Of a stretch of 11,634 bases of DNA, positions 1 to 10,656 are shown in pieces. The stretch is from a virus. Taxonomy: Duplodnaviria; Heunggongvirae; Uroviricota; Caudoviricetes. A model generated the notes under the pieces. It had not been told where the DNA came from. It worked only from the letters and a program-made list of their open reading frames with translations, and did no database searches. The stretch's first letter is position 1; each line of letters begins with the position of its first letter. Where the stretch lies: the IMG/VR virus record IMGVR_UViG_2737471861_000024; one strand, written 5' to 3'. The position numbers were made by a program, and so were the translations under genes.

Positions 1-1257
1 GTGCTTACCGATACAAAATTAAAAAACCTCAAGCCGCAGGACAAACTGTACAAGGTATCCGATCGTGACGGGCTGTATGTAGCTGTGCTTACGTCAGGAA
101 CGGTCTCGTTTCGCTATGACTACCGTATCAACGGTCGCCGCGAAACACTGGTAATCGGGCAGTATGGGCGTGACGGTATCAGTCTGGCAGAAGCGCGAGA
201 AGAACTGATTGCTGCAAAGAAGCTGCTTAAAGCAGGCCAGTCGCCGGCTGCGGCTAAACGTGACGGTATCAAAAAGATTCGTGGTGCCGAGACGTTTGCG
301 GTACATACCGACAGTTATATGAAACACGTCATCCTGGCTGACAGTACCCGTGCAATGAAGCAGTCGGTGATCGACCGTGACATACTTCCGGTTCTTGGCA
401 ACAAAATGATGGCTGAAATTACCACATCGATGGTTCGTGATTTGTGTGACCGGATTGTCGAACGCGGTGGCCGTGCAACAGCAGTACAGGCCAGGGAGAT
501 CATCAGCAGCGTATACCGTCACGCCAATGACCGTGGTCATGGTTTGTTTAATCCTGCGGCTGACATTAAACCTTCGTCTATCGCCATATTTAAACCACGA
601 GAGCGAACACTGACACCAGAAGAAATTGGCCTGTTCTTCCGCACGCTGGATGCCATTGGTGCTATGGGCACTATGAAAATGGCTTTAAAGCTGGTGCTTA
701 TCACTATGGTTCGTAAAGGCGAATTCACTAATGCAACGTGGGACGAAATAGATTTTAAAAAATGGACATGGACAATTCCTTCAGACCGCATGAAGGGAAG
801 CCGGGCGCACGTTATTTACCTGCCTAAACAGGCACAGGATATATTGGTTGGGTTGCAGATGTGCGCTGGTGGAAGTGAATATCTGGTTCCTGGTCGTTAC
901 AATTTCCGGAAGCCATTATCTAATGCCGCGCTGAACTCTCTGATCGACAGAACGGTGAAAATAATAAATGAAGATGGTGAGCATATTCAGGACTTCACCG
1001 TACACGATATGCGCCGTACAGCAAGTACGTTGTTGCATGAGGCTGGTTATCCTTCAGACTGGATTGAAAAGGCTCTGGCACATGAGCAGAAAGGTGTGCG
1101 CGCCGTATATAACAAAGCGGAATACGCCAGACAGCGCGCCTACATGTTGCAGCAGTGGGCCGATATGATTGATTCCTGGATTAACGGGGAGCATACGGAT
1201 CTGATTCCGTTCTCCCCGTCGAAGTTTGAGAGGTGGATGGAAGACAGTAATAAATAA
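1..1257 (+). CDS. int: Phage tyrosine integrase (P4-like, N-terminal arm-binding DUF4102-type domain); begins with GTG at window position 1, so either GTG-initiated or truncated by a few codons at the window edge
   Basis: 418-aa ORF; N-terminus LTDTKLKNLKP...DGLY..RY.Y typical of P4-family integrase arm-binding domain; C-terminal catalytic region HDMRRTASTLLHEAGYPSDWIEKALAHE...VRAVYNKAEY with the tyrosine-recombinase His/Arg/Tyr arrangement. Confidence 0.9.
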   Translation: MLTDTKLKNLKPQDKLYKVSDRDGLYVAVLTSGTVSFRYDYRINGRRETLVIGQYGRDGISLAEAREELIAAKKLLKAGQSPAAAKRDGIKKIRGAETFAVHTDSYMKHVILADSTRAMKQSVIDRDILPVLGNKMMAEITTSMVRDLCDRIVERGGRATAVQAREIISSVYRHANDRGHGLFNPAADIKPSSIAIFKPRERTLTPEEIGLFFRTLDAIGAMGTMKMALKLVLITMVRKGEFTNATWDEIDFKKWTWTIPSDRMKGSRAHVIYLPKQAQDILVGLQMCAGGSEYLVPGRYNFRKPLSNAALNSLIDRTVKIINEDGEHIQDFTVHDMRRTASTLLHEAGYPSDWIEKALAHEQKGVRAVYNKAEYARQRAYMLQQWADMIDSWINGEHTDLIPFSPSKFERWMEDSNK

Positions 1258-1259
1258 TT

Positions 1260-1919
1260 CTATCCTTCCTGGAGTTTGGTAAGCGTCAGATTTCCGCAGA
1301 ACACTGCGCCGGTGTCGATGTACATCTGGTTTGCATACACCAGTGGGTGATGTGCTGGCGTATGACCGAAGATGAACAAATCGGCACCGGTTATCTCCGA
1401 GACAATACCGTCCTGCGCGTCGCTAACCCGCTCACGATTCCATATCACCATTTCTTCTGGTACTGGCTTATCGAATGCGTATTCGTTGTGCGGGTAGTCT
1501 GCGTGACAGATGACGACCTTCTTATTGCCGGTAACCAGTTCGATAATCATCGGGAGGTTGGTAATCTTTGGCAGAAGGTATTTGAGTTGCACATCCTGCT
1601 CAGAATCAAGTTGGTGCCACCATCCACCGCCGTTTGACATCCAATGTCCGAAACTTCCGCCGTTGACCAGTGCATCCAGCATCATCTGCTCATGGTTGCC
1701 ACGAACAGCTCGGAACCACGGCATAGTAATCAAATCCAGGCATTCGACGTTTTCAGCGCCGCGGTCAACAAGGTCACCAACGGAAATAAGTAAATCGCGC
1801 GCCGGGTCGAATGAAACTTTGTCGAGTTCGTTCATCAGCAGCGTGTAGCACCCATGCAGATCGCCGACGACGAAGATATTGCACCAGTCAGCGCCATTGA
1901 TACGTTGATATAGGTTCAT
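1260..1919 (-). CDS. Ser/Thr protein phosphatase, PPP-family metallophosphoesterase (lambda PPase / NinI-like); start placed at internal ATG 1919 (MNLYQ...), not at the ORF-track start 2039
   Basis: GDLHG, GDLVDRG, GNHE metallophosphatase motifs; strong collinear similarity to recalled lambda PPase sequence ([71 protein letters not shown]); ATG at 1919 forms an ATGA overlap with the stop of the upstream methyltransferase gene. Confidence 0.85.
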
Positions 1920-2566
1920 GCTGCACGCTCCCGCCCCTGGTTGTCTATTGGTGACACCGGAGCATTGCTGAATGCATTTGTTAATCCGCCAATATCCAAC
2001 GCGTATCCAGGGTGTAGTTGCACTGCCGGGTCTTCGCACTGATTACCCCAAACATCGAAGCCATGAGACTTCTGGCGGGCGAACAGTTCAATGCGAGAAA
2101 CATCGCCTAACAATTGCACAAGTTTTTCACGAACGACATCTGGTTTTCTTGAATGCTCAAGCCGCGGTGCGGTAAATGACTGAACGATCCCTGCATTAAT
2201 GCGTGGAGGTAGTTTTCCCTTTACTGCAAACAGGCAATCTTCACTATTGGCGCGAGTCATGTGTCCCATACCCATAACCAGTTTATCTGGTTGTCGACTA
2301 CCACATTTTATCCACGTGAAGCCCTTCATGGTCATCAGACGGAATCCCCAGGCTTCAACAACTTTTAGCGCTTCGAGTGGTTGTGTTGGCACCCACCACA
2401 TGGCCAACAGACAGTTTTCATCGGCCAAATCCCACACAGGAAGGCGGCAGATATCCATCACACTCATAACCGGATATTTAAAACTGGCACCGCGATTACC
2501 ATCTGCGGCTTTGTCCCGGTATACCCAGGGTGGATCTGCATAGATTAGTGTGTATTTCTTAGTCAT
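1916..2566 (-). CDS. MT-A70 family DNA N6-adenine methyltransferase (phage orphan Dam-like MTase)
   Basis: 216-aa ORF with DPPW catalytic motif near N-terminus ([10 protein letters not shown]) characteristic of MT-A70-type N6-adenine methyltransferases; GGGGTGG Shine-Dalgarno-like sequence upstream of ATG at 2566; stop overlaps phosphatase start (ATGA). Confidence 0.8.
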
Positions 2567-2858
2567 AAACCACCCCGCAACATCCTATACCGCTATAGTC
2601 TCCACGGCGAAGGCCGTTACCTTTTGTGATACATTGGTCCCTGCGAACCGCGATCCTTGCACGCTCAACATCACCAGAAGCAACATCCATACACTGAAGC
2701 CAAAGGTGGGCGGCAATCCGGAACTGCCCTTTTTTCTCTCTTTCAATCGCGCGTTTTTCGATCTCTATCGCCGCAGGAGTAACGGCAACAACCTTTGAAG
2801 GGCTGCGCATTGAAACCTTGTTCATGTGATATTTTTCAAGTCGGCTTAACTTTCTCAC
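2559..2858 (-). CDS. Hypothetical protein (~83-99 aa; start ambiguous: GTG 2858, ATG 2825 or ATG 2810); 3' end overlaps methyltransferase start by 8 bp
   Basis: ORF in operon context with GAGAGGG Shine-Dalgarno-like sequence about 9 nt upstream of GTG 2858; no recognisable motif. Confidence 0.4.
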   Translation of the reverse strand: MRKLSRLEKYHMNKVSMRSPSKVVAVTPAAIEIEKRAIEREKKGQFRIAAHLWLQCMDVASGDVERARIAVRRDQCITKGNGLRRGDYSGIGCCGVVYD

Positions 2859-2967
2859 TTAATCCAACCCTCTCTGAAAATTAATGCCAGCAGATAAAGC
2901 CATGCTGAAACAGAGGCCAGGAATAAGTACCATCCTGACCATTTGCTCCAGTGCCTTAGCAGCGCAC

Positions 2968-3216
2968 TCATGCAGCGTTGCTCACGGGACGATATACACG
3001 TTGCTGAACAGGAGGTTTTTTACCCTGGAACTCTGCCGGGCTTGCTGCCTGACGTTCATCAAGCCAACGCTCAACTTCATCACGGTTCCATGCGCAGCGT
3101 TTATCGGTGATATACCAGCGTTTAGGAAATTCCCCTGCGCGCTCCATACGGTCGATAGTGCTCCATGACAGTGGCACCACCGCCAGGAGTTCCTTCTTAC
3201 CTAATGCACCTTTCAT
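2968..3216 (-). CDS. AlpA-family / excisionase-like small DNA-binding protein (MerR-superfamily HTH)
   Basis: 82-aa ORF; segment LLAVVPLSWSTIDRMERAGEFPKRWYITDKRCAWNRDEVERWLDER matches the AlpA/Xis pattern (st.y......G.FP....ig.r...W...EV..WL); GAGAGGT Shine-Dalgarno upstream of ATG 3216. Confidence 0.7.
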   Translation of the reverse strand: MKGALGKKELLAVVPLSWSTIDRMERAGEFPKRWYITDKRCAWNRDEVERWLDERQAASPAEFQGKKPPVQQRVYRPVSNAA

Positions 3217-3237
3217 AAATACCTCTCTTGGTTGCAG

Positions 3238-3258
3238 TGCGGCGCGCGTGGCGCCGCG
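3238..3258. other. GC-rich hairpin (7-bp stem GCGGCGC / GCGCCGC, 5-nt loop) in the bet / xis-like intergenic spacer; no flanking T-run on either strand
   Basis: Inverted repeat read directly: gcggcgc-gcgtg-gcgccgc at 3239-3257. Confidence 0.4.
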
Positions 3259-3265
3259 GTGGTGG

Positions 3266-4147
3266 TTACATAGATGTTTCGTTTAATTCTTCCCGACGAA
3301 CGCTGTAAACGTCGGTGGCTTTTGCCAGCAGTTCGTCATCATCTGAAAGTTTTTGTGCAATGTATTTGTAAGCCTTATCCAGTTCGGAGACAGTGCTGTA
3401 ATTCATCGCTGCGCTGGTAAAGGCCATCAGCATTTCTTCTGGATCACGGCTATCCGCTTTACGCGTTTGCTCATCAGGCTTTTTCGCTGGTTTAGCGTTG
3501 ATCAGACTGTTCATTCCCGCAGCAGTGGTCGTTTGCGGAGTAATGTCTCGCTCAACGCGCGGTGCCGTTTCCTGTAATTCGTCAGGGGTGTAAACACCGA
3601 GAAGTACATCAGGAGCGTGCAGGCGAGCCCATCGTTTCGTGCAAAGATAGGCAAGTTGCTGGCGCGGATCCTGTTCCCACAATGGAGAGTTACGCACTCC
3701 GGCTTGCGCCATACTGATGGTAAGCTCACGGGGTTCTGCTTCTCCTTTAAGAACCGCTGACACAGTTACCGTCAGATTCGGTGATTTATCTGTTTTGCCG
3801 TTAACATTCGACCAGTCACCGCTCCAGCGATAATTCAGGCGTGTCGCTAGCAGGCTGGAAGAGGATACGACCGCGTTTACCAACTGTGCTTCGTAGCCTA
3901 ACGTTCCGTTTACCACATGCGTTTTTTGCGCCACGGCGAAAGGGTTCATTCCCCACTGTGCCGCCTGCATGGTCACCGCCAGACAATCGGAAGGTTTGCC
4001 TTCAAGATGTTTCGGTACAGTCGCTTTGCTTTGTGACATCAACTCCGCGAAACGCACCAGTTGATTCATGCCCTCCGGGCTGAAGATTGCCGCAGCAGTA
4101 CCTACAGTTGCGCCTGGTTGTGATGTGATTGCGATATCATTGCTCAT
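3266..4147 (-). CDS. bet: Red-beta / Bet family single-strand annealing protein (recombinase)
   Basis: 293-aa ORF; ERDITP and surrounding C-terminal region resemble lambda Bet (ERQPERDITPVNDE); N-terminal region GMNPFAVAQKTHVVNGTLGYEAQLVNAVV typical of Red-beta family; start ATG overlaps stop of upstream nuclease gene (ATGA). Confidence 0.8.
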   Translation of the reverse strand: MSNDIAITSQPGATVGTAAAIFSPEGMNQLVRFAELMSQSKATVPKHLEGKPSDCLAVTMQAAQWGMNPFAVAQKTHVVNGTLGYEAQLVNAVVSSSSLLATRLNYRWSGDWSNVNGKTDKSPNLTVTVSAVLKGEAEPRELTISMAQAGVRNSPLWEQDPRQQLAYLCTKRWARLHAPDVLLGVYTPDELQETAPRVERDITPQTTTAAGMNSLINAKPAKKPDEQTRKADSRDPEEMLMAFTSAAMNYSTVSELDKAYKYIAQKLSDDDELLAKATDVYSVRREELNETSM

Positions 4148-4965
4148 ACGTACATATCCTGTTTACGTGCCCAGTCAGGGCGTTTAATAATTTCCACTCC
4201 GCCCCACTCATCGTTGATGCGGCATTCGTGATAGGTATTCAGATCCCGGCGGAACAGAGCGTGCCCGGCATCGACATCCGGCGCATCCAACTCGAACACG
4301 CGTACCGGATACCGACCACAATCAATGCTTTCGCTCACGGCAAGAAAGAAAAAACCATGCGGCTGACCAGTAACCTTCATTGCGCCTTCGCGGTACATTG
4401 CGTCCTGCACGTGGTAGCGGAATTCCTCGATGTGGCGTGCAAAACGGTCCATATCTGCAACCTTTTTCACGTCGACGATCACGTTGTGCTCGTTCAGCCA
4501 TTTGTCTGGACGAATGCGGCACAACTCACCAGTCTCTTCATCGTTCCAGTACATTGATGCTTCGTAGTAACCAGGTGCTTCCAGCATCCAGCGTGCCGCC
4601 GGGTGAGCCATTGCGCTATCACGCATCAGCTCCAGTTTCCGCCACTGCTCGGCATCAAGTACCGCAATCCCCATATCCGCTACATCACGAAGAAATGCTT
4701 CTTCGTCAGCTTTACCTTGTTTCGTCCGACGATCGAACTTTGGTGAAACAATGAAGCGTTTGTCGAATTCTCCAGGTTCCAGAAGCAGACAGTGCAATGC
4801 AGTTCCCATATCTAGTGCAGACTTTTTCTCTTCGTCTTCTGGTGCTGCCTGAACCCATTTAAGAAGCGCCGGATTCTTGGCAACCATGTCCAGTTGCGAC
4901 TTACTCACGCCGTCACCGGCGTGGTAGTCTTCGTTGCTGATGTCGAAATAAATTCCCGGTTTCAT
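4144..4965 (-). CDS. PD-(D/E)xK family exonuclease (RecB/Cas4-like nuclease domain), recombination partner of Bet
   Basis: 273-aa ORF; motifs RPDKW ... IVDVKKV (D ... D-x-K) and downstream YHVQDAMY (Q..Y) typical of PD-(D/E)xK nucleases; sits directly upstream of and translationally coupled to bet, as in RecE/RecT-type modules. Confidence 0.75.
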   Translation of the reverse strand: MKPGIYFDISNEDYHAGDGVSKSQLDMVAKNPALLKWVQAAPEDEEKKSALDMGTALHCLLLEPGEFDKRFIVSPKFDRRTKQGKADEEAFLRDVADMGIAVLDAEQWRKLELMRDSAMAHPAARWMLEAPGYYEASMYWNDEETGELCRIRPDKWLNEHNVIVDVKKVADMDRFARHIEEFRYHVQDAMYREGAMKVTGQPHGFFFLAVSESIDCGRYPVRVFELDAPDVDAGHALFRRDLNTYHECRINDEWGGVEIIKRPDWARKQDMYV

Positions 4966-5261
4966 GCCGCGTCCTTCTGTCCATCAAGCTGATCCGCCAG
5001 ATCCCAGCGGGCGATAATTGCCATTGCCTCTCGCCGATATGCATCCATCAGTTCTTCGAACTCAGGGCTGTCTTTAGCTGCTTCCAGCACTTCCTGACGA
5101 ACGCCTTTGCCTGTTACAACGTCGAAAGTTGAGGACAGTTGATGAAGTCGGATGCTCTCAATCAGTTCAACTTGTCGGTCATATAGCTGTTCTGACAGGC
5201 GGTAGTCCTTGTCGAATGCCAGCATGATTTTTTGAAGATTTTTCTGCTGATTAACGTTCAT
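4962..5261 (-). CDS. Hypothetical protein (~99 aa from ATG 5261; GTG 5267 alternative)
   Basis: ORF with GAGGTGG Shine-Dalgarno overlapping upstream stop codon, ATG 7 nt downstream; stop overlaps exonuclease start (ATGA); no recognised motif. Confidence 0.55.
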   Translation of the reverse strand: MNVNQQKNLQKIMLAFDKDYRLSEQLYDRQVELIESIRLHQLSSTFDVVTGKGVRQEVLEAAKDSPEFEELMDAYRREAMAIIARWDLADQLDGQKDAA

Positions 5262-5268
5262 ACCCACC

Positions 5269-6303
5269 TCAATATTTGATATACGCGTCCTGCACTTTGC
5301 CGCCAGCGATAGCCAACATTGCTTTCTGCGCGAATTCTTCGGGAATGCCTTGGGCTATCAGATCTTCGATTACTCTGCGGTTAACGGTACGGCGATGCTC
5401 TTTATCCGCAGCTCGGCGCGCTTCTTCGTCGGCGATACGCTTCTGTTCGTCAAGGCGGGCTTTTTCTGCCGCCTCTTGGCGTCGGCGTTCCTCGGCAACG
5501 GCTTCTTCTTTTTCGCGTTGTGCACGCTGCTCTGCTTCAATTCGCTGACGTTCTGCTACTTCAGCACGTGCTTTCTCTTCCGCCGCCAGGCGTGCCGCAG
5601 CCTCAATTTCAGATTTCGCTTTTTGTTCAGCTTCGAGCCTGGCCTGTTCAGCAGCTTCCCGGCGGATATTCTCTTCTCGCTCAATGCGCGCTTTTTCCTC
5701 CGCTTCTTTGCGAAGTCGCTCCAGCTCAGCGGCTTCATGCTCGCGTTTTTGAGCTACTGCGAGTGATTCTTCCAGTTTCTGGATGGTTGAATCCTTGGCT
5801 ACTCCAGCTTCTGCTGCGTACTCATGCCAACTCTCATCAAGTGCTACTGATTTAGCCTCTTGAATTCGTTCCTGAATATCAGTTGATGGCAAGTAGTTTC
5901 CGGAGAGATCGATCACGTCAGCTAGTGCTCGCAAATTTGTCAGGCGTTGTTGCAGTGCTTCGGTGCGTAATTTCTCAGCATTTTCCCACTCGGTGAGTGG
6001 GCGGCGTACTTCATCACGAAGCCGATCGCATTCGGTTACGAAGCGTCGTAACTCTGCTTCAACTACTTTCGGCTGTTCTTTCAGGCGTTTCAGATAATCA
6101 CGTCCTGGTTTTTCTACCGCTGTTTTACTTCTTGAAACCTTCGCAGCCAGAGATGCAATGCGCTTTCTGCCTTTGTCTGTGCTAATGTCAGGCACTTCAT
6201 TAACACCTTCACGGATCTGCTCAAGAAACTTTTCCAGTCCTTTTTCAACGTAAATTCTTGGTGCCATATCTGGTGTGATTTCGATGATTGATGATTCACT
6301 CAT
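5269..6303 (-). CDS. Hypothetical protein with long E/R/K/A/Q-rich charged helical repeat region (coiled-coil or single-alpha-helix-like), 344 aa
   Basis: Long ORF; residues ~180-300 are nearly pure E/A/R/K/Q repeats (EAEQKAKSEIEAAARLAAEEKARAEVAERQRIEAEQRAQREKEE...) flanked by non-repetitive N- and C-terminal segments; start ATG overlaps stop of upstream small ORF. Confidence 0.7.
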   Translation of the reverse strand: MSESSIIEITPDMAPRIYVEKGLEKFLEQIREGVNEVPDISTDKGRKRIASLAAKVSRSKTAVEKPGRDYLKRLKEQPKVVEAELRRFVTECDRLRDEVRRPLTEWENAEKLRTEALQQRLTNLRALADVIDLSGNYLPSTDIQERIQEAKSVALDESWHEYAAEAGVAKDSTIQKLEESLAVAQKREHEAAELERLRKEAEEKARIEREENIRREAAEQARLEAEQKAKSEIEAAARLAAEEKARAEVAERQRIEAEQRAQREKEEAVAEERRRQEAAEKARLDEQKRIADEEARRAADKEHRRTVNRRVIEDLIAQGIPEEFAQKAMLAIAGGKVQDAYIKY

Positions 6304-6461
6304 TTGCTAACCTGCTCCCATATCTCGTTATCGTTGGCCACATCGCGAGCTTCTTTGCTGACGAAAGCCCACTTAATGCCTTCCTGTAAGGTGCGGAACC
6401 TCCAGCTCATGAATCCGCATGCAGTAACGCAGTACCAACCGTTGATGATTTTCCACTGCAT
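6300..6461 (-). CDS. Small hypothetical ORF (53 aa, MQWKIINGWYCVTACGFMSWRFRTLQEGIKWAFVSKEARDVANDNEIWEQVSK), first gene after the leftward early promoter; absent from the ORF track (under 60 aa)
   Basis: Hand translation of minus strand; GAGGT Shine-Dalgarno 8 nt upstream of ATG 6461; TGA stop overlaps ATG of the next gene (ATGA). Confidence 0.45.
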   Translation of the reverse strand: MQWKIINGWYCVTACGFMSWRFRTLQEGIKWAFVSKEARDVANDNEIWEQVSK

Positions 6462-6480
6462 AACTTGTTACCTCGGTCTG

Positions 6481-6495
6481 TTACCGTTGAGGTAA
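6481..6495. promoter_or_regulatory. Operator-like palindrome TTACC-GTTGA-GGTAA overlapping the -10 / transcription start of the leftward early promoter
   Basis: Perfect 5-bp inverted half-sites separated by 5 bp; same motif recurs at 6543-6557, 7255-7269, 9586-9600 and 9648-9662. Confidence 0.55.
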
Positions 6496-6523
6496 TAATT
6501 ATGCGTATCTGGTTTGGTGTCAA
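6495..6523 (-). promoter_or_regulatory. Putative leftward early promoter (PL-like): -35 TTGACA (6523-6518), 17-bp spacer, -10 AATTAT (6500-6495) on minus strand
   Basis: Perfect consensus -35 hexamer with 17-bp spacing to an A2/T6-containing -10; flanked by operator palindromes; positioned in front of the leftward operon. Confidence 0.5.
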
Positions 6524-6542
6524 TAGATATGAGTTAAAAAAA

Positions 6543-6557
6543 TTACCCGTTAGGTAA
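6543..6557. promoter_or_regulatory. Operator-like palindrome TTACC-CGTTA-GGTAA, 19 bp upstream of the PL-like -35
   Basis: Perfect TTACC-N5-GGTAA inverted repeat. Confidence 0.55.
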
Positions 6558-6568
6558 TCGAACAGGCA

Positions 6569-6594
6569 ATAAAAAAGCCGCCAGAAGGCGGCTT
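6569..6594 (-). terminator. Rho-independent terminator downstream of the repressor gene (minus strand): 8-bp stem AAGCCGCC/GGCGGCTT, 4-nt loop, followed by T-run on minus strand
   Basis: Hairpin aagccgcc-agaa-ggcggctt at 6575-6594; plus-strand A-run 6570-6576 gives a U-tract on the minus-strand transcript; lies 20 bp beyond the repressor stop. Confidence 0.6.
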
Positions 6595-6614
6595 ACTTAC
6601 TGAAAAATATGATT

Positions 6615-7199
6615 TTATTGTTTGTTTTTTTCGTTCTGGTTGATGACAAATTCAATGTAACTTTCGATCTTTGCTTTCTCGGTTTCGGGTAACAATGCGT
6701 AGCGCGAGCGATCATAGTTGATGGTCGCAGGGTCGTGCGGGTGAATCAGTAATTCATAGCCGTGACGCCCGAATGCGGATGCAACATTCTCCAGGGTGGA
6801 AATGGAAACGCTGACCTCATTGTTTAACAGGCGGCTGATTGTCACCTGGGCGACGCCGGATGCGCGGTGTAGTTTTCCCTGCGTTGAAAGGTCGCGGCTT
6901 TCGCTCATCCAGCGTTCCAGGTTGTGAGCCGCCAACTGACCAATGTCGCTTGGGCCGACAGGATGAAAACCTTCCTGAGAAAGCGAGCGATCGATATCAA
7001 GCCAGTTACGGGGTTTATTGGCGGCAGCTTCAATTTTTCGCGCAACCTGGTCGCCGATAACTTTCTTGCCAAGAGCCCAGCGGTTTACCAGATTTGCCTG
7101 AGTTCCAAGTTTTTCTGCCATCCGCGTCTGAACACCATTGAATTCACGGTCGATCAAGTCGTTGAGATTTTGCCTGCGGACGTCCTGGATACTTTTCAT
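6615..7199 (-). CDS. CI-like prophage repressor with two tandem XRE-type helix-turn-helix domains; no peptidase-S24 (LexA-like) autocleavage domain recognisable
   Basis: 194-aa ORF divergent from the Cro-like gene; HTH 1 ~aa 25-70 (TRMAEKLGTQANLVNRWALGKKVIGDQVARKIEAAANKPRNWLD), HTH 2 ~aa 115-150 (ASGVAQVTISRLLNNEVSVSISTLENVASAFG); no Ala-Gly/Ser-Lys cleavage module seen. Confidence 0.7.
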   Translation of the reverse strand: MKSIQDVRRQNLNDLIDREFNGVQTRMAEKLGTQANLVNRWALGKKVIGDQVARKIEAAANKPRNWLDIDRSLSQEGFHPVGPSDIGQLAAHNLERWMSESRDLSTQGKLHRASGVAQVTISRLLNNEVSVSISTLENVASAFGRHGYELLIHPHDPATINYDRSRYALLPETEKAKIESYIEFVINQNEKNKQ

Positions 7200-7254
7200 T
7201 TTCTGGAAAATCGCCTCATATATGAATCAGTAGATGATTCAATTTAAAGCAATA

Positions 7255-7317
7255 TTACCCAACAGGTAAATGCACCCCATAGGTAACTATCCTTGATTTT
7301 TGTTACCTTATGGGTGA
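7255..7317. promoter_or_regulatory. Divergent immunity-region operator cluster: O1 TTACC-CAACA-GGTAA (7255-7269, perfect), O2 GCACC-CCATA-GGTAA (7272-7286, degenerate), O3 TTACC-TTATG-GGTGA (7303-7317, degenerate)
   Basis: Same TTACC-N5-GGTAA family as at PL; sites lie in the 154-bp gap between the divergent repressor and Cro-like genes; an alternative reading is a larger inverted repeat CCATAGGTAAC / GTTACCTTATGG flanking TTGATT. Confidence 0.5.
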
Positions 7318-7328
7318 ATATTTATTAT
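7300..7328 (+). promoter_or_regulatory. Putative rightward early promoter (PR-like): -35 TTGTTA (7300-7305), 17-bp spacer, -10 TATTAT (7323-7328)
   Basis: Hexamers read by eye; O3 overlaps the -35/spacer; alternative -35 TTGATT at 7293-7298 with -10 GAATAT. Confidence 0.4.
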
Positions 7329-7353
7329 CTGAAATAAATATCAGGCAATAGCT

Positions 7354-7584
7354 ATGAGCGATAACGGACATTTCGATTTCAAAAAGCACTGGCTTGCACT
7401 TACTCCGGATGAGCGTGAAGCCTTCGCACAGGAAGCCGGAACGACGAGTCACTATATCCAGACTCACTTAACAGGTAAGCGCAAAATGCCAGGTAAGGTA
7501 TTGATGAATGGGCTTTTTAAAGCCTGTAAAACAAGACAATGGCTGCGCTCAAAAGCAGAACTGGCATACTTCTTCTACTCATGA
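7354..7584 (+). CDS. Cro-like small HTH DNA-binding protein (Cro/YdaS-type)
   Basis: 76-aa ORF divergent from repressor; HTH-like segment AGTTSHYIQTHLTGKRKMP; position and size as for Cro in lambdoid immunity regions. Confidence 0.65.
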   Translation: MSDNGHFDFKKHWLALTPDEREAFAQEAGTTSHYIQTHLTGKRKMPGKVLMNGLFKACKTRQWLRSKAELAYFFYS

Positions 7585-7606
7585 TATCCAGCCACAACCC
7601 TCTGTA

Positions 7607-7628
7607 GACCGCCATCCGGCGGTCTTTT
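7607..7628 (+). terminator. Rho-independent terminator after the Cro-like gene (tR1-like): stem GACCGCC/GGCGGTC, loop ATCC, then TTTT
   Basis: Perfect 7-bp GC-rich hairpin at 7607-7624 followed by T-run 7625-7628, 23 bp after the Cro-like stop. Confidence 0.6.
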
Positions 7629-7734
7629 CATATCTATTCGCACCTAAAAGGTAACAAAAAACCAAATCTGGTTGATCTTTTTTTTGTGTCAGCACAAAAT
7701 AACCGTAATCCCAATACTAATAACAGGGCTTACC

Positions 7735-7935
7735 ATGGAAATCATTACACGTATTGATGCCGCAAAGCGCGGACTTAAACGCTACTACACCGGAAAACCA
7801 TGTAAGCATGGACATGACAGTGAACGCTGGGTTTACAACGGACACTGTGTTGAGTGCACCATGGAATCAAACCGTCGCATCAGGGCAGAGATTAAGCAGA
7901 TCATGATTAATTCCTCCCCACAACATTCAAACTGA
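7735..7935 (+). CDS. Small hypothetical protein (66 aa) with Cys/His cluster (C-x-H-x-H ... C-x2-C), possible zinc-binding; occupies the cII position between cro-like and O-like genes
   Basis: Start placed at ATG 7735 (MEIITRIDAAKRGLKRYYTGKPCKHGHDSERWVYNGHCVEC...) rather than ORF-track start 7672; AGGG Shine-Dalgarno-like sequence upstream. Confidence 0.55.
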   Translation: MEIITRIDAAKRGLKRYYTGKPCKHGHDSERWVYNGHCVECTMESNRRIRAEIKQIMINSSPQHSN

Positions 7936-7950
7936 TAGCGGAGATTAATC

Positions 7951-8766
7951 ATGAGCAGACATGCAACAGATTGGGCCTGGGAGACAGATCCAGGTAGCTC
8001 GTCATTAAAGCTCATACTGCTCTCGATGGCTGACAGAGCCGATGAATATAACCTCTGCTACCCCAGCATAGAACGCCTCGTTAAAGACACTTGCCTGAAT
8101 AAAAAAACCGTACAGGCCGGGCTTATATCGCTCATGAAAATGGGGCTTATTTCAGATACCGGAGAGAGAAAGGGAGCGACGAAAAGAGTGCGGGTTTTCT
8201 CTCTTAATATAACCAAAAACGGGAACATTAAAGGCAACCGGGAGGGGGGCAATGAACCCGAAAACGGTAATGTTACCGAAAACGGGAATATACCCAAAAA
8301 CGGGATGTTGAATGATCCCAAAAACGGGATGTTGAATGATCCCAAAAACGGGATCCAGAACCAGTCATATAACCAGTCATTTAACCAAGAGAGGGAGAGC
8401 AGGACAAAAACCGGGGATTCTGTGCCTCATGACCACGGCGCAAACAACGCCGTGATGAATAACTTTGTTCCTCCTGGTGGGCCAGGGCAATTAGGCAAAT
8501 TTGTCATGCATGAACAATGGCAGCCATCAGATGACTTTCTTCGGAAAAGCTCATTGCAGGGGATCTACCTGGACAGTCTGCCAACGGCACAGGAACTTGC
8601 AGAATTCAGAATTTACTGGATGGCTGAGGGTAAGGCATACCATCAGGCACAGTGGGAGCAGAAGCTGGCAAGGCGGCTGCAGATTAGCAGACAGAAGCAA
8701 TCAACATTACCTGATAACAACGTTCCGCACTGGAACAGCCCTGAAGCATGGGAGGATTTCTTGTGA
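7951..8766 (+). CDS. Replication initiator, lambda O-like (N-terminal winged-helix DNA-binding domain, internal iteron-encoded linker)
   Basis: 271-aa ORF; N-terminal LILLSMADRADEYNLCYPSIERLVKDTCLNKKTVQAGLISLMKMGLIS resembles the phage replisome-organiser N-terminal domain; GGAG Shine-Dalgarno before ATG 7951; immediately upstream of the P-like gene; contains direct DNA repeats as in the lambda O/ori arrangement. Confidence 0.8.
   Translation: MSRHATDWAWETDPGSSSLKLILLSMADRADEYNLCYPSIERLVKDTCLNKKTVQAGLISLMKMGLISDTGERKGATKRVRVFSLNITKNGNIKGNREGGNEPENGNVTENGNIPKNGMLNDPKNGMLNDPKNGIQNQSYNQSFNQERESRTKTGDSVPHDHGANNAVMNNFVPPGGPGQLGKFVMHEQWQPSDDFLRKSSLQGIYLDSLPTAQELAEFRIYWMAEGKAYHQAQWEQKLARRLQISRQKQSTLPDNNVPHWNSPEAWEDFL
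8213..8356. repeat. Candidate replication origin iterons inside the O-like gene: about six copies of CC(A/G)AAAACGG(G/T)A spaced at 18-24 bp, including a perfect tandem 24-bp duplication (8293-8316 and 8317-8340) and a partial third copy
   Basis: Direct repeats read in sequence at about 8213, 8258, 8276, 8294, 8318, 8342; the tandem 24-mer cccaaaaacgggatgttgaatgat encodes repeated PKNGMLND peptide units. Confidence 0.7.
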
Positions 8767-9548
8767 ACAACGTTTTTACCGCGATACAAAACCGTGACGG
8801 AGAAGCCCTTTCTCGCATGTCAGGTTATGAGCATCAGTACACCAACAATGACAACGTGGTGAACATGTCAGCAGAGAGGCTTGTTGATGCCCTTTTCAAA
8901 CAGCTGAAACAACTGTTTCCGGCGGCAGTGGTAACCAACCTGAAGACGCCAGAGCAGGAAGTTGCTGCAAAACAGCAGTGGATTGCTGCGTTTGCCGAAG
9001 GGGGGATCCGAACCCGTGAACAGGTTTCTGCTGGTATGCGCCACGCCCGCGCCAGTGAATCTCCGTTCTGGCCGTCGCCAGGGCAATTCATCAAGTGGTG
9101 TAAAGACAGCAAGATGGTTCTTGGCGTCACCATTGACGATGTGATGGCGGAGTTTCACCGGTACAGCAAGGAAAAAAGTTTATATCCTGGTGGTCCCGAA
9201 AGATTCCCGTGGCGACATCCGGTTATGTACTGGGTCGTATGTGATACCCGCCGTGCAATGTATCAGCGCCAGCTTAGCGAGATTGAGGTTGAGAAACACG
9301 CGCGCAGGCTGCTCGATGATTGGGCGAAAAAGGTGGCTTCCGGACAGCAGATACCCGATCCGGTGATCAGCATACAGGCAAAGCCAGAACCAATGAGTAC
9401 GCCTCCGGACACAGGGAGAGACGTTTACCATCCACCAGGGCGAAGTTTCGGGTGCATGCCTAACGCCGCCACCCTGGGGGGAATAACACCGGCGCAGTGG
9501 CTGATGGAGGAATACAGGCGAGGAAAGGCAGCAGGATTTATCAAGTAA
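8748..9548 (+). CDS. Replication protein P-like (DnaB helicase loader); start may be ATG 8748 or GTG 8763 (GTGA overlap with O-like stop)
   Basis: 266-aa ORF; FPAAVVTNLKTPEQEVAAKQQWIAAFAEGGIRTREQVSAGMRHARASESPFWPSPGQFIKWCKD aligns with recalled lambda P (FPASLANRDQNEVNEIRRQWVLAFRENGITTMEQVNAGMRVARRQNRPFLPSPGQFVAWCRE). Confidence 0.85.
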   Translation: MGGFLVNNVFTAIQNRDGEALSRMSGYEHQYTNNDNVVNMSAERLVDALFKQLKQLFPAAVVTNLKTPEQEVAAKQQWIAAFAEGGIRTREQVSAGMRHARASESPFWPSPGQFIKWCKDSKMVLGVTIDDVMAEFHRYSKEKSLYPGGPERFPWRHPVMYWVVCDTRRAMYQRQLSEIEVEKHARRLLDDWAKKVASGQQIPDPVISIQAKPEPMSTPPDTGRDVYHPPGRSFGCMPNAATLGGITPAQWLMEEYRRGKAAGFIK

Positions 9549-9553
9549 TACCA

Positions 9554-9573
9554 GCGCGATAGCGCATTTTTTT
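9554..9573 (+). terminator. Weak candidate intrinsic terminator after the P-like gene (4-bp GCGC stem, loop GATA, T7 run)
   Basis: gcgc-gata-gcgc followed by attttttt; stem is short so termination efficiency is doubtful. Confidence 0.3.
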
Positions 9574-9585
9574 ACGCCTCAATAG

Positions 9586-9600
9586 TTACCTAATAGGTAA
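9586..9600. promoter_or_regulatory. Operator-like palindrome GTTACC-TAATA-GGTAAC, 19 bp upstream of the -35 of a third promoter
   Basis: Perfect TTACC-N5-GGTAA; spacing to the -35 is identical to the arrangement at the PL-like promoter. Confidence 0.55.
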
Positions 9601-9619
9601 CAAAATATTCTTAGATCTA

Positions 9620-9648
9620 TTGATTTCGTGTCTTATGTGGTTTTTAAT
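9620..9648 (+). promoter_or_regulatory. Putative rightward promoter for the downstream accessory genes: -35 TTGATT (9620-9625), 17-bp spacer, -10 TTTAAT (9643-9648)
   Basis: Hexamers read by eye; flanked by operator palindromes with the same spacing as at PL; shared ATCTATTGA core around the -35 in both promoters. Confidence 0.5.
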
Positions 9649-9662
9649 TACCTTAGAGGTAA
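9648..9662. promoter_or_regulatory. Operator-like palindrome TTACC-TTAGA-GGTAA overlapping the -10/start region and the ribosome-binding site of the gene at 9666
   Basis: Perfect TTACC-N5-GGTAA; its GAGGT doubles as Shine-Dalgarno for ATG 9666. Confidence 0.55.
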
Positions 9663-9665
9663 ATC

Positions 9666-10010
9666 ATGAGAAAACAGATACAGGCTCTTGGTCGACTCAA
9701 AACAGGCCAGATGAACAAAACAGAATCTGCGTATTGCCAGCACCTTGAGCAGCGTAAACGTGCAGGGGAAGTCGCCTGGTATCGGTTCGAGGGTATCAAG
9801 CTGCGGCTGGCTGACAACACGTTTTATACGCCCGATTTCGCTGTGATGCTCGCCACCGGAGAGATGGAACTGCACGAAGTGAAAGGTTTCTGGACCGACG
9901 ACGCCAGGGTGAAAACCAAAGTCGCCGCAGATCAGTATCCGTTCCGAATCATCGGGGTAACGGTTAAACCAAAGAAAGCAGGTGGTGGCTGGAATATCGA
10001 AGAGTTCTGA
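9666..10010 (+). CDS. DUF1064-like small phage protein, possible PD-(D/E)xK-type nuclease (114 aa)
   Basis: Motifs YTPDF and ELHEVKG (D ... E-x-K) in the arrangement recalled for DUF1064 proteins; strong Shine-Dalgarno GAGGTAA upstream. Confidence 0.55.
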   Translation: MRKQIQALGRLKTGQMNKTESAYCQHLEQRKRAGEVAWYRFEGIKLRLADNTFYTPDFAVMLATGEMELHEVKGFWTDDARVKTKVAADQYPFRIIGVTVKPKKAGGGWNIEEF

Positions 10011-10071
10011 ATCGACGATCTTTTTAGTTATCAATGTAATCAATAAGTTATGTGGATAAGCGAGGGTAAAG

Positions 10072-10656
10072 ATGGAAAGTAATATCAAAGGGTTAGTTAC
10101 CGCCGGGCATGAGATGGCTTCGGAACTGAAAGCAGAATGTGGCGCCGTTGATATGCGTAGTGTGGCAAAGCTGATCAGCGATTTGGCAACGCAACTGGAA
10201 GTGCAACTGGTGCGTGCTAATGCGCTGGAAGCGGAGAATGCGGGGCTTAAGGCGGGACATTCATATTTCTCATATGGCTCTGAGCATAATTTCGAATGGC
10301 ACAAAACTGCTGAGGAAGCTATCGAATCGGCTGAGGCTGCAATTGACGACTATCGCGGTGATGCTTGCGATGGATGGAGCGAAGAGGTCGATAGTATTTG
10401 CTGGGGAATCATCATGCAATCGTCAACGAAGGTTGGCGAACGACCACGCAACGAGGATGACTGTTGTGATCCTGCGATCGATACGATTTGCGATTATGCG
10501 CTTCTGCCTAATATCGACACCCCAGCCACCGATGCTTTTCTGGCTGAAGTACGGGCGCAGGGCGTTGAGATGTTTGCGGAGTGTGCATACACACTTGAAC
10601 ATCATGATCACGCAGTAGCCTTCGCCGCTGAGCTTCGCAAAGGAGGCAACCAGTGA
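10072..10656 (+). CDS. Hypothetical phage protein (194 aa), acidic, with N-terminal predicted helical region
   Basis: ORF with GAGGG Shine-Dalgarno 6 nt upstream of ATG; no motif recognised. Confidence 0.55.
   Translation: MESNIKGLVTAGHEMASELKAECGAVDMRSVAKLISDLATQLEVQLVRANALEAENAGLKAGHSYFSYGSEHNFEWHKTAEEAIESAEAAIDDYRGDACDGWSEEVDSICWGIIMQSSTKVGERPRNEDDCCDPAIDTICDYALLPNIDTPATDAFLAEVRAQGVEMFAECAYTLEHHDHAVAFAAELRKGGNQ

Follow-up and report, generated by a model that had tools for sequence, protein, structure and literature searches.

The structurally solved counterpart of the repressor analysed here belongs to the Rep/Ant pair of Salmonella phage SPC32H, which was reportedly studied by Kim and Ryu in 2013 (J Virol) and by Kim et al. 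in 2016 (PNAS). One account divides SPC32H Rep into an N-terminal DNA-binding domain (DBD), a middle dimerisation domain (MDD) and a C-terminal CAD that both tetramerises and binds Ant (PMC9986798), and a second describes Rep on DNA as a tetramer whose head pairs come from different dimers and which is broken by tetrameric Ant (PMC9638917). According to a review, the SOS response does not cleave the repressor in phages of this type but works via an antirepressor controlled by LexA, Rep being inhibited by protein-protein interaction (PMC7380047). In the E. coli phage vB_EcoP_ZX5, overexpression of ORF21 abolished free phage and lowered the transcripts of the lysis genes (holin, endolysin) by >99.9%, mitomycin C raised the titre 100-fold, from 1e7 to 1e9 PFU/ml, and overexpression of a gene annotated 'anti-repressor' left prophage numbers about 1000-fold lower (PMC9782041). 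Moreover, Uetakevirus prophages of the phiV10 species were induced 21-47 fold by a DNA-damaging microcin (bioRxiv 10.64898/2026.05.26.727859). Published work already covers the repressor type, its crystal structures, the antirepressor and the link to LexA, and the two helix-turn-helix (HTH) domains that the initial annotation reported in the repressor are a correct but known finding; the GenBank record of phiV10 carries the note 'two helix-turn-helix motifs' on gp40. In RefSeq the repressor is named 'helix-turn-helix domain-containing protein' and Ant 'hypothetical protein'.

The DNA analysed here (the window, 11,634 nucleotides in all) is the early region of an epsilon15/phiV10-like prophage of the genus Uetakevirus, with genes for an integrase, a methyltransferase, RecT and a nuclease, followed by the immunity region, DnaT-like and lambda-P-like replication genes and a DUF1064 gene. 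Positions 6300-7700, which hold the immunity region, are 97-98.5% identical in DNA sequence to phiV10, vB_EcoP_ZX5, TL-2011b and other E. coli podoviruses, and the stretch was found in 561 of 5426 complete E. coli genomes, the nearest being that of E. coli E423 (99.7% identity). The E423 prophage adjoins guaA and is 99.06% identical to the window across 1914-10228, while the best match to the whole window among the 5426 genomes reaches 92% coverage at 97.5% identity. Several features of the window vary among relatives. A calcineurin-like metallophosphatase gene at 1260-2039 (-) (Pfam Metallophos, E=2.5e-15) takes the place of the DUF1382 gene of phiV10 and E423, a mosaic swap beside the integrase. 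RecT and the PD-(D/E)XK nuclease are encoded by separate, overlapping genes (3266-4147 and 4144-4965, both (-)) here, in E423 and in SPC32H, whereas phiV10 annotates one RecE/RecT fusion. Two genes downstream of the rep terminator in the leftward operon, and adjacent to a 101-aa ORF at 4962-5267 (-), positions 5269-6303 (-) encode a 344-aa protein rich in charged coiled coil, with no Pfam match, that E423 also has and phiV10 lacks. Within the gene for the DnaT-like replication initiator (7951-8766), tandem repeats at 8256-8387 with periods of 18, 24 and 12 bp encode an NG..PKNGMLND peptide repeat; they are probably iterons of an origin that, as in lambda O, lies within the initiator gene.

The rep ORF is intact and its opposite-facing neighbour is a cro-like gene, which puts rep at the CI position (Table 1). 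Its product, Rep, is 100% identical to WP_040092417.1 of the E423 prophage and 99.5% identical to phiV10 gp40 and ZX5 ORF21, annotated 'repressor', the sole change being H79Q in the linker. A phmmer search matched Rep to the PDB chain 5d50_A, 'Repressor', with E=3.9e-42 over aa 1-190 of 194, and to 5D4Z, which comprises Rep 92-198, with E=4e-20; the repressor chains of both entries are Rep of SPC32H. By tblastn, the rep gene of that phage (KC911856) encodes a protein 41.8% identical at 98% coverage, and the recognition-helix segment NLVNRW is identical between the two. Marks of the SPC32H type found here are homology over the full length, an N-terminal XRE HTH, the fold of Rep 92-198 (MDD plus C-terminal module) and, within a Uetakevirus early region, the CI position opposite a divergent cro-like gene, with palindromic operators. 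On every sequence-level comparison made, Rep is therefore placed in the SPC32H Rep family.

We consider it very likely that Rep is the immunity repressor of a phiV10/epsilon15-like (Uetakevirus) prophage, that its N-terminal head reads the operators, its second HTH dimerises and its C-terminal module tetramerises, and that it is inactivated by a LexA-controlled Ant and not by RecA cleavage. The basic, XRE-type head would read the half-sites of TTACC-N5-GGTAA, in palindromes predicted to lie next to or across three promoters, the early PL and PR and one before the DUF1064 gene. The second HTH-fold domain would hold Rep in dimers, which the C-terminal module would join into a tetramer, so presenting symmetric pairs of identical heads. 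Because Rep has no LexA-like peptidase, RecA would not cleave it; DNA damage would inactivate host LexA and derepress a small ant gene elsewhere in the prophage, and Ant would bind the C-terminal part of Rep, dismantle the tetramer and free Rep from DNA. The literature on relatives is our source for repressor activity, for induction by mitomycin C, for the tetramer and for the binding of Ant, the last two being known for SPC32H Rep, which is only 42% identical to the protein of the window and 34% identical in the dimerisation domain.

Table 1. Coordinates of rep, the domains of its product, neighbouring genes and terminators, candidate promoters and predicted operators in the window. Identities are to SPC32H Rep.
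Feature	Position	Strand	Sequence	Remarks
rep, probable immunity repressor gene, SPC32H Rep family	6615..7199	(-)		194 aa; ATG at 7199, TAA at 6615-6617
Rep aa 1-65, N-terminal XRE-type HTH, predicted DNA-binding head	7005..7199	(-)		helix 2 = aa 24-31; recognition helix 3 = aa 35-43 (ANLVNRWAL); 52% identity
Rep aa 66-88, flexible linker	6936..7004	(-)		pLDDT <50 at aa 66-81; mean column identity 0.54, the least conserved segment; 35% identity
Rep aa 89-152, second XRE-fold HTH-like domain	6744..6935	(-)		counterpart of the SPC32H Rep middle dimerisation domain (MDD); 34% identity
Rep aa 153-194, C-terminal module	6618..6743	(-)		counterpart of the SPC32H Rep CAD; 43% identity, to the C-terminus of 5d4z/5d50
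intrinsic terminator 3' of rep	6575..6594	(-)		8-bp stem with 6 GC pairs, then a T run; same terminator annotated in phiV10
cro-like gene	7354..7584	(+)		76 aa; phrog_35 'transcriptional repressor', E=5.6e-13; divergent from rep
terminator 3' of cro-like gene	7606-7625			
OL operator (predicted), distal	6543..6557		TTACCCGTTAGGTAA	perfect arms; 5' of the PL -35; kept in phiV10 and E423
OL operator (predicted), proximal	6481..6495		TTACCGTTGAGGTAA	perfect arms; abuts the PL -10, common base 6495; 62 bp centre-to-centre from the distal site
candidate PL promoter	6495..6523	(-)	TTGACA-17-AATTAT	strong leftward candidate; 10/12 consensus matches; flanked and overlapped by the two OL operators
OR operator (predicted), rep-proximal	7255..7269		TTACCCAACAGGTAA	perfect arms
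OR operator (predicted)	7272..7286		GCACCCCATAGGTAA	2 mismatches; 17 bp from the 7255 site
OR operator (predicted)	7303..7317		TTACCTTATGGGTGA	1 mismatch; overlaps the -35 and spacer of candidate PR
candidate PR promoter	7300-7328			overlapped by the OR site 7303-7317
third-promoter operator (predicted), distal	9586..9600		TTACCTAATAGGTAA	perfect arms; after a terminator-like hairpin 3' of gene P
third-promoter operator (predicted), proximal	9648..9662		TTACCTTAGAGGTAA	perfect arms; over the -10/RBS of the DUF1064 gene (ATG 9666); 62 bp from its distal partner

The palindrome TTACC-N5-GGTAA occurs at 13 sites in the window when up to two mismatches are allowed, against 3.06 expected, and none of 200 shuffles reached that number. 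In addition to the OL and OR sites, a third pair, at 9586 and 9648, brackets a promoter-like stretch before the DUF1064 gene and is conserved in phiV10, E423 and SPC32H; in this third region the promoter scan returned no site above its thresholds, and the -35 and -10 there were read by eye. Which promoters Rep would repress is suggested by this placement of the operators. SPC32H repeats the TTACC half-site, the 62-bp spacing of the pairs and the 17-bp and roughly 30-bp spacings within OR, and the common arms and spacings are in line with the identical recognition helix NLVNRW. Between the cro terminator and the rightward gene that follows, positions 7640-7654 hold a weaker operator-like site, GCACCTAAAAGGTAA; its phiV10 counterpart (33112 in that genome) has one mismatch.

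The motif extends well beyond the early region. At no more than one mismatch, the whole genomes hold 14 copies in phiV10 (12 of them intergenic), 15 in the E423 prophage and 18 in SPC32H, compared with about 0.5-0.7 expected, and the positions conserved among the three include OL, OR, the third early promoter, the head/structural operon, the divergent region between ant and the tail-fibre gene, the lysis cassette and int. Since the 62-bp spacing of the pairs is conserved, each promoter could be clamped by the two head pairs of a single tetramer. We therefore put forward, as a tentative idea that may well prove wrong, that Rep is a genome-wide silencer of almost every transcription unit instead of a two-operator switch, that each 62-bp pair is clamped by one tetramer and that ant is under dual control by LexA and Rep.

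Outside the window, the relatives supply the second half of the proposed switch. The 85-aa product of phiV10 gp24 (phiV10p24) matches SPC32H Ant (5d50_E) with 88% identity (E=2.9e-46), and the E423 prophage, whose Rep is identical to that of the window, carries an Ant orthologue behind the LexA box TACTGTATAAATATACAGTT. In phiV10 (at about 20 bp), E423 and SPC32H, ant is preceded at 20-25 bp by a perfect CTGT-N8-ACAG box; by our own count these boxes match 17-18 of the 20 positions of the LexA-box consensus TACTGTATATATATACAGTA. In the phage records, Rep homologues were found in 37 and Ant in 35, every one of which also has Rep; the two records with Rep only are a 138-kb composite and a Pseudomonas phage that matches the head domain alone. 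Among the 5426 complete E. coli genomes, ant was present in 529 and the immunity region in 561. Neither ant nor the gene for the Bro-N protein discussed below was found when Ant and the Bro-N protein were searched by tblastn against the 11.6-kb window, and the window holds no perfect LexA box, its one-mismatch boxes (6 against 3.8 expected) being at chance level. This is as expected, because in the E423 prophage as integrated some 27 kb separate ant from rep, beyond the reach of the window, and from these relatives we infer that the window's own prophage carries ant as well. The initial annotation had argued that induction would call for an antirepressor or another signal in place of self-cleavage and had pointed to the rest of the prophage as the place to look for its gene. 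The first point agrees with the literature on SPC32H Rep/Ant and with the position of ant behind a LexA box in E423 and phiV10, and the 85-aa Ant orthologue is present in both. In the divergent region between ant and the tail-spike gene, the LexA box also has a Rep-type operator some tens of bp upstream of it (SPC32H 20013-20027; phiV10 20877-20891; E423 prophage locus 36722-36736), a hint that LexA and Rep jointly control ant or the divergent tail gene. Between the phages of E. coli and Salmonella, identity is 88% for Ant as against 42% for Rep, and a near-invariant Ant facing diverged repressors hints at cross-induction between heteroimmune prophages.

Just downstream of ant, the E423 prophage encodes a Bro-N protein (prophage locus 35381-36073 (-)) in which aa 149-222 are 42% identical to Ant (E=2e-19), that is, a Bro-N/Ant-like fusion. 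At the corresponding position (1078-1773 (-)), ZX5 has a gene for a protein of similar size annotated 'anti-repressor', which we liken to the E423 protein by its position, while the ZX5 orthologue of SPC32H Ant (2089-2346) is annotated 'hypothetical protein'. The Bro-N protein of phiV10, gp23, was considered as the equivalent of SPC32H Ant and rejected, as its match is marginal (E=0.34) and the orthologue is gp24. The Bro-N protein with its Ant-like C-terminal domain could nevertheless be the main inducer, or redundant with the 85-aa Ant, given the similarity of the E423 segment to Ant and the roughly 1000-fold drop in prophage numbers upon overexpression of the ZX5 gene at the same position. 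We regard this as improbable, though of the alternatives it is the one to be taken most seriously: SPC32H has no Bro-N gene and relies on Ant alone, the phiV10 protein scarcely resembles Ant, and Ant itself is present in all 35 records.

Turning to Rep itself, the two XRE-like HTH domains that had been read from the sequence in a single chain were confirmed. The second is matched by Pfam HTH_3 at aa 106-147 with 38.5 bits (cut-off 23; E=1.2e-9), with HTH_26, HTH_31 and LacI matches in support. The first is weak in Pfam, where YdaS_toxin, a Cro-like family, matches at E=3e-4 and under its cut-off, but it is clear in PHROG repressor families (E=3e-11 and 4e-10) and in structure, the AlphaFold model of aa 1-79 having a pLDDT of 89.9. 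Rep thus contains helical XRE-fold domains with HTH motifs, as expected of the XRE/Cro-C1 HTH superfamily. When the N-terminal domain was compared by BLASTP with the remainder of the chain, nothing aligned at E<=100, so the two domains are not a recent internal duplication. The initial annotation had placed the second HTH within residues 100-194; the HTH fold at aa 89-152 bears this out in part, while aa 153-194 form a separate C-terminal module that had been overlooked and that is modelled in the monomer with moderate confidence (pLDDT about 64-81). The N-terminal domain has a net charge of +6 (+4 to +9 in 39 homologues), whereas the second domain is about neutral. Of the 26 invariant alignment columns, 16 fall in the N-terminal domain, among them N36, R40 and W41 in the recognition helix. 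Charge, invariant columns and the NLVNRW helix in common with SPC32H are all consistent with the N-terminal domain being the reading head, and the dimerisation role of aa 89-152 is assigned by analogy, from homology and from secondary descriptions of SPC32H Rep.

An alternative is that both HTH domains contact DNA and that the second reads a different sequence beside or between the palindromes. The second domain does retain a well-conserved HTH-like motif, SQxTIxRMLNN, which might reflect a residual role in DNA binding, but we think it very unlikely that Rep works as such a bipartite reader: in the published description of the solved homologue, DNA is bound by the N-terminal domain and the second domain is for dimerisation (PMC9986798), the second domain is electrically neutral next to the +6 of the first, each operator is a simple palindrome of 15 bp whose arms are identical, and the second domain of SPC32H Rep carries P where Rep has Q. 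In the preferred reading, with DNA read by the N-terminal head and dimers made by the second HTH-fold domain, the concern raised in the initial annotation that two different HTHs sit oddly with symmetric operators falls away, because identical N-terminal heads would pair within the oligomer on symmetric operators.

The absence of a self-cleavage module, also proposed at the outset, held up. No Peptidase_S24/LexA match was found in Rep by Pfam search even at E<=10, nor among the PDB sequence matches. The S24 peptidase fold is beta-rich, whereas the C-terminal half of Rep is modelled as nearly all helix, without beta-strands, and matches 5d4z. Rep therefore lies outside the self-cleaving repressors of the LexA/CI type (Peptidase S24). 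Direct inactivation of Rep by RecA-dependent cleavage, or by another protease, despite the lack of a recognisable S24 domain would suit the response of related prophages to DNA damage, which fits cleavage and antirepression alike. It is nonetheless extremely improbable, considering that no S24/LexA-like match exists at that threshold, that the whole chain is explained by two all-helical XRE-fold domains and a short oligomerisation module, that a LexA-boxed ant exists in the same type of prophage, and that the review literature has Rep of the SPC32H type inhibited by protein-protein interaction (PMC7380047). That Rep is some other XRE regulator such as an antitoxin, as one phage record suggests by labelling it 'VapI antidote', can be practically dismissed in view of its CI position divergent from cro, the palindromic operators over both promoters, the lack of a toxin gene adjoining rep, its orthology to the experimentally defined rep of SPC32H and the block to lytic growth caused by overexpression of ZX5 ORF21.

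The result is useful for annotation. The Rep immunity region is carried by roughly a tenth of the complete E. coli genomes (561 of 5426). Prophages of this type are best read as SOS-inducible through LexA and Ant, and the lack of an S24 domain should not lead to their being called non-inducible.

Compared with known systems, the locus is closest in kind to SPC32H, with which it has in common the genus Uetakevirus, the position of the gene, the three-module layout of Rep, the TTACC-N5-GGTAA arms and their spacings and the NLVNRW helix; the Ant orthologue of its relatives, 88% identical, lies likewise behind a LexA box and at the same genomic position before the tail-spike/fibre gene. It differs in that Rep has diverged far more than Ant, chiefly in the dimerisation domain (34%), in that the central 5 bp of the operators are A/T-rich in SPC32H and of mixed sequence here, in having two OL sites where SPC32H has three, and in that SPC32H is without the Bro-N protein with an Ant-like C-terminus that the E. 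coli relatives add. With phiV10 gp40 and ZX5 ORF21 it shares essentially the same protein (H79Q) in an immunity region of about 98% DNA identity, but the prophage of the window is a mosaic variant, with a metallophosphatase gene (DUF1382 in phiV10), separate RecT and nuclease genes and the extra 344-aa coiled-coil gene. The resemblance of Rep to Rco/Rap of the Bacillus plasmid pLS20 and to SinR/SinI of B. subtilis is structural and not sequence-based, and these systems lack a second HTH-fold dimerisation domain and have other partner proteins. Lambda CI, P22 C2 and the 434 repressor are different again, as they carry a C-terminal S24 autopeptidase, cleaved with the help of RecA, that is absent from Rep. 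Closer in logic are the repressors of Gifsy-1 and Gifsy-3, whose LexA-controlled antirepressors were reportedly described by Lemire et al. in 2011. In these and in the CI/Tum pair of coliphage 186, as the review presents them, a non-cleavable repressor is opposed by a small LexA-repressed antirepressor (PMC7380047), and it is by this logic alone that we liken them to the Rep/Ant switch proposed here.
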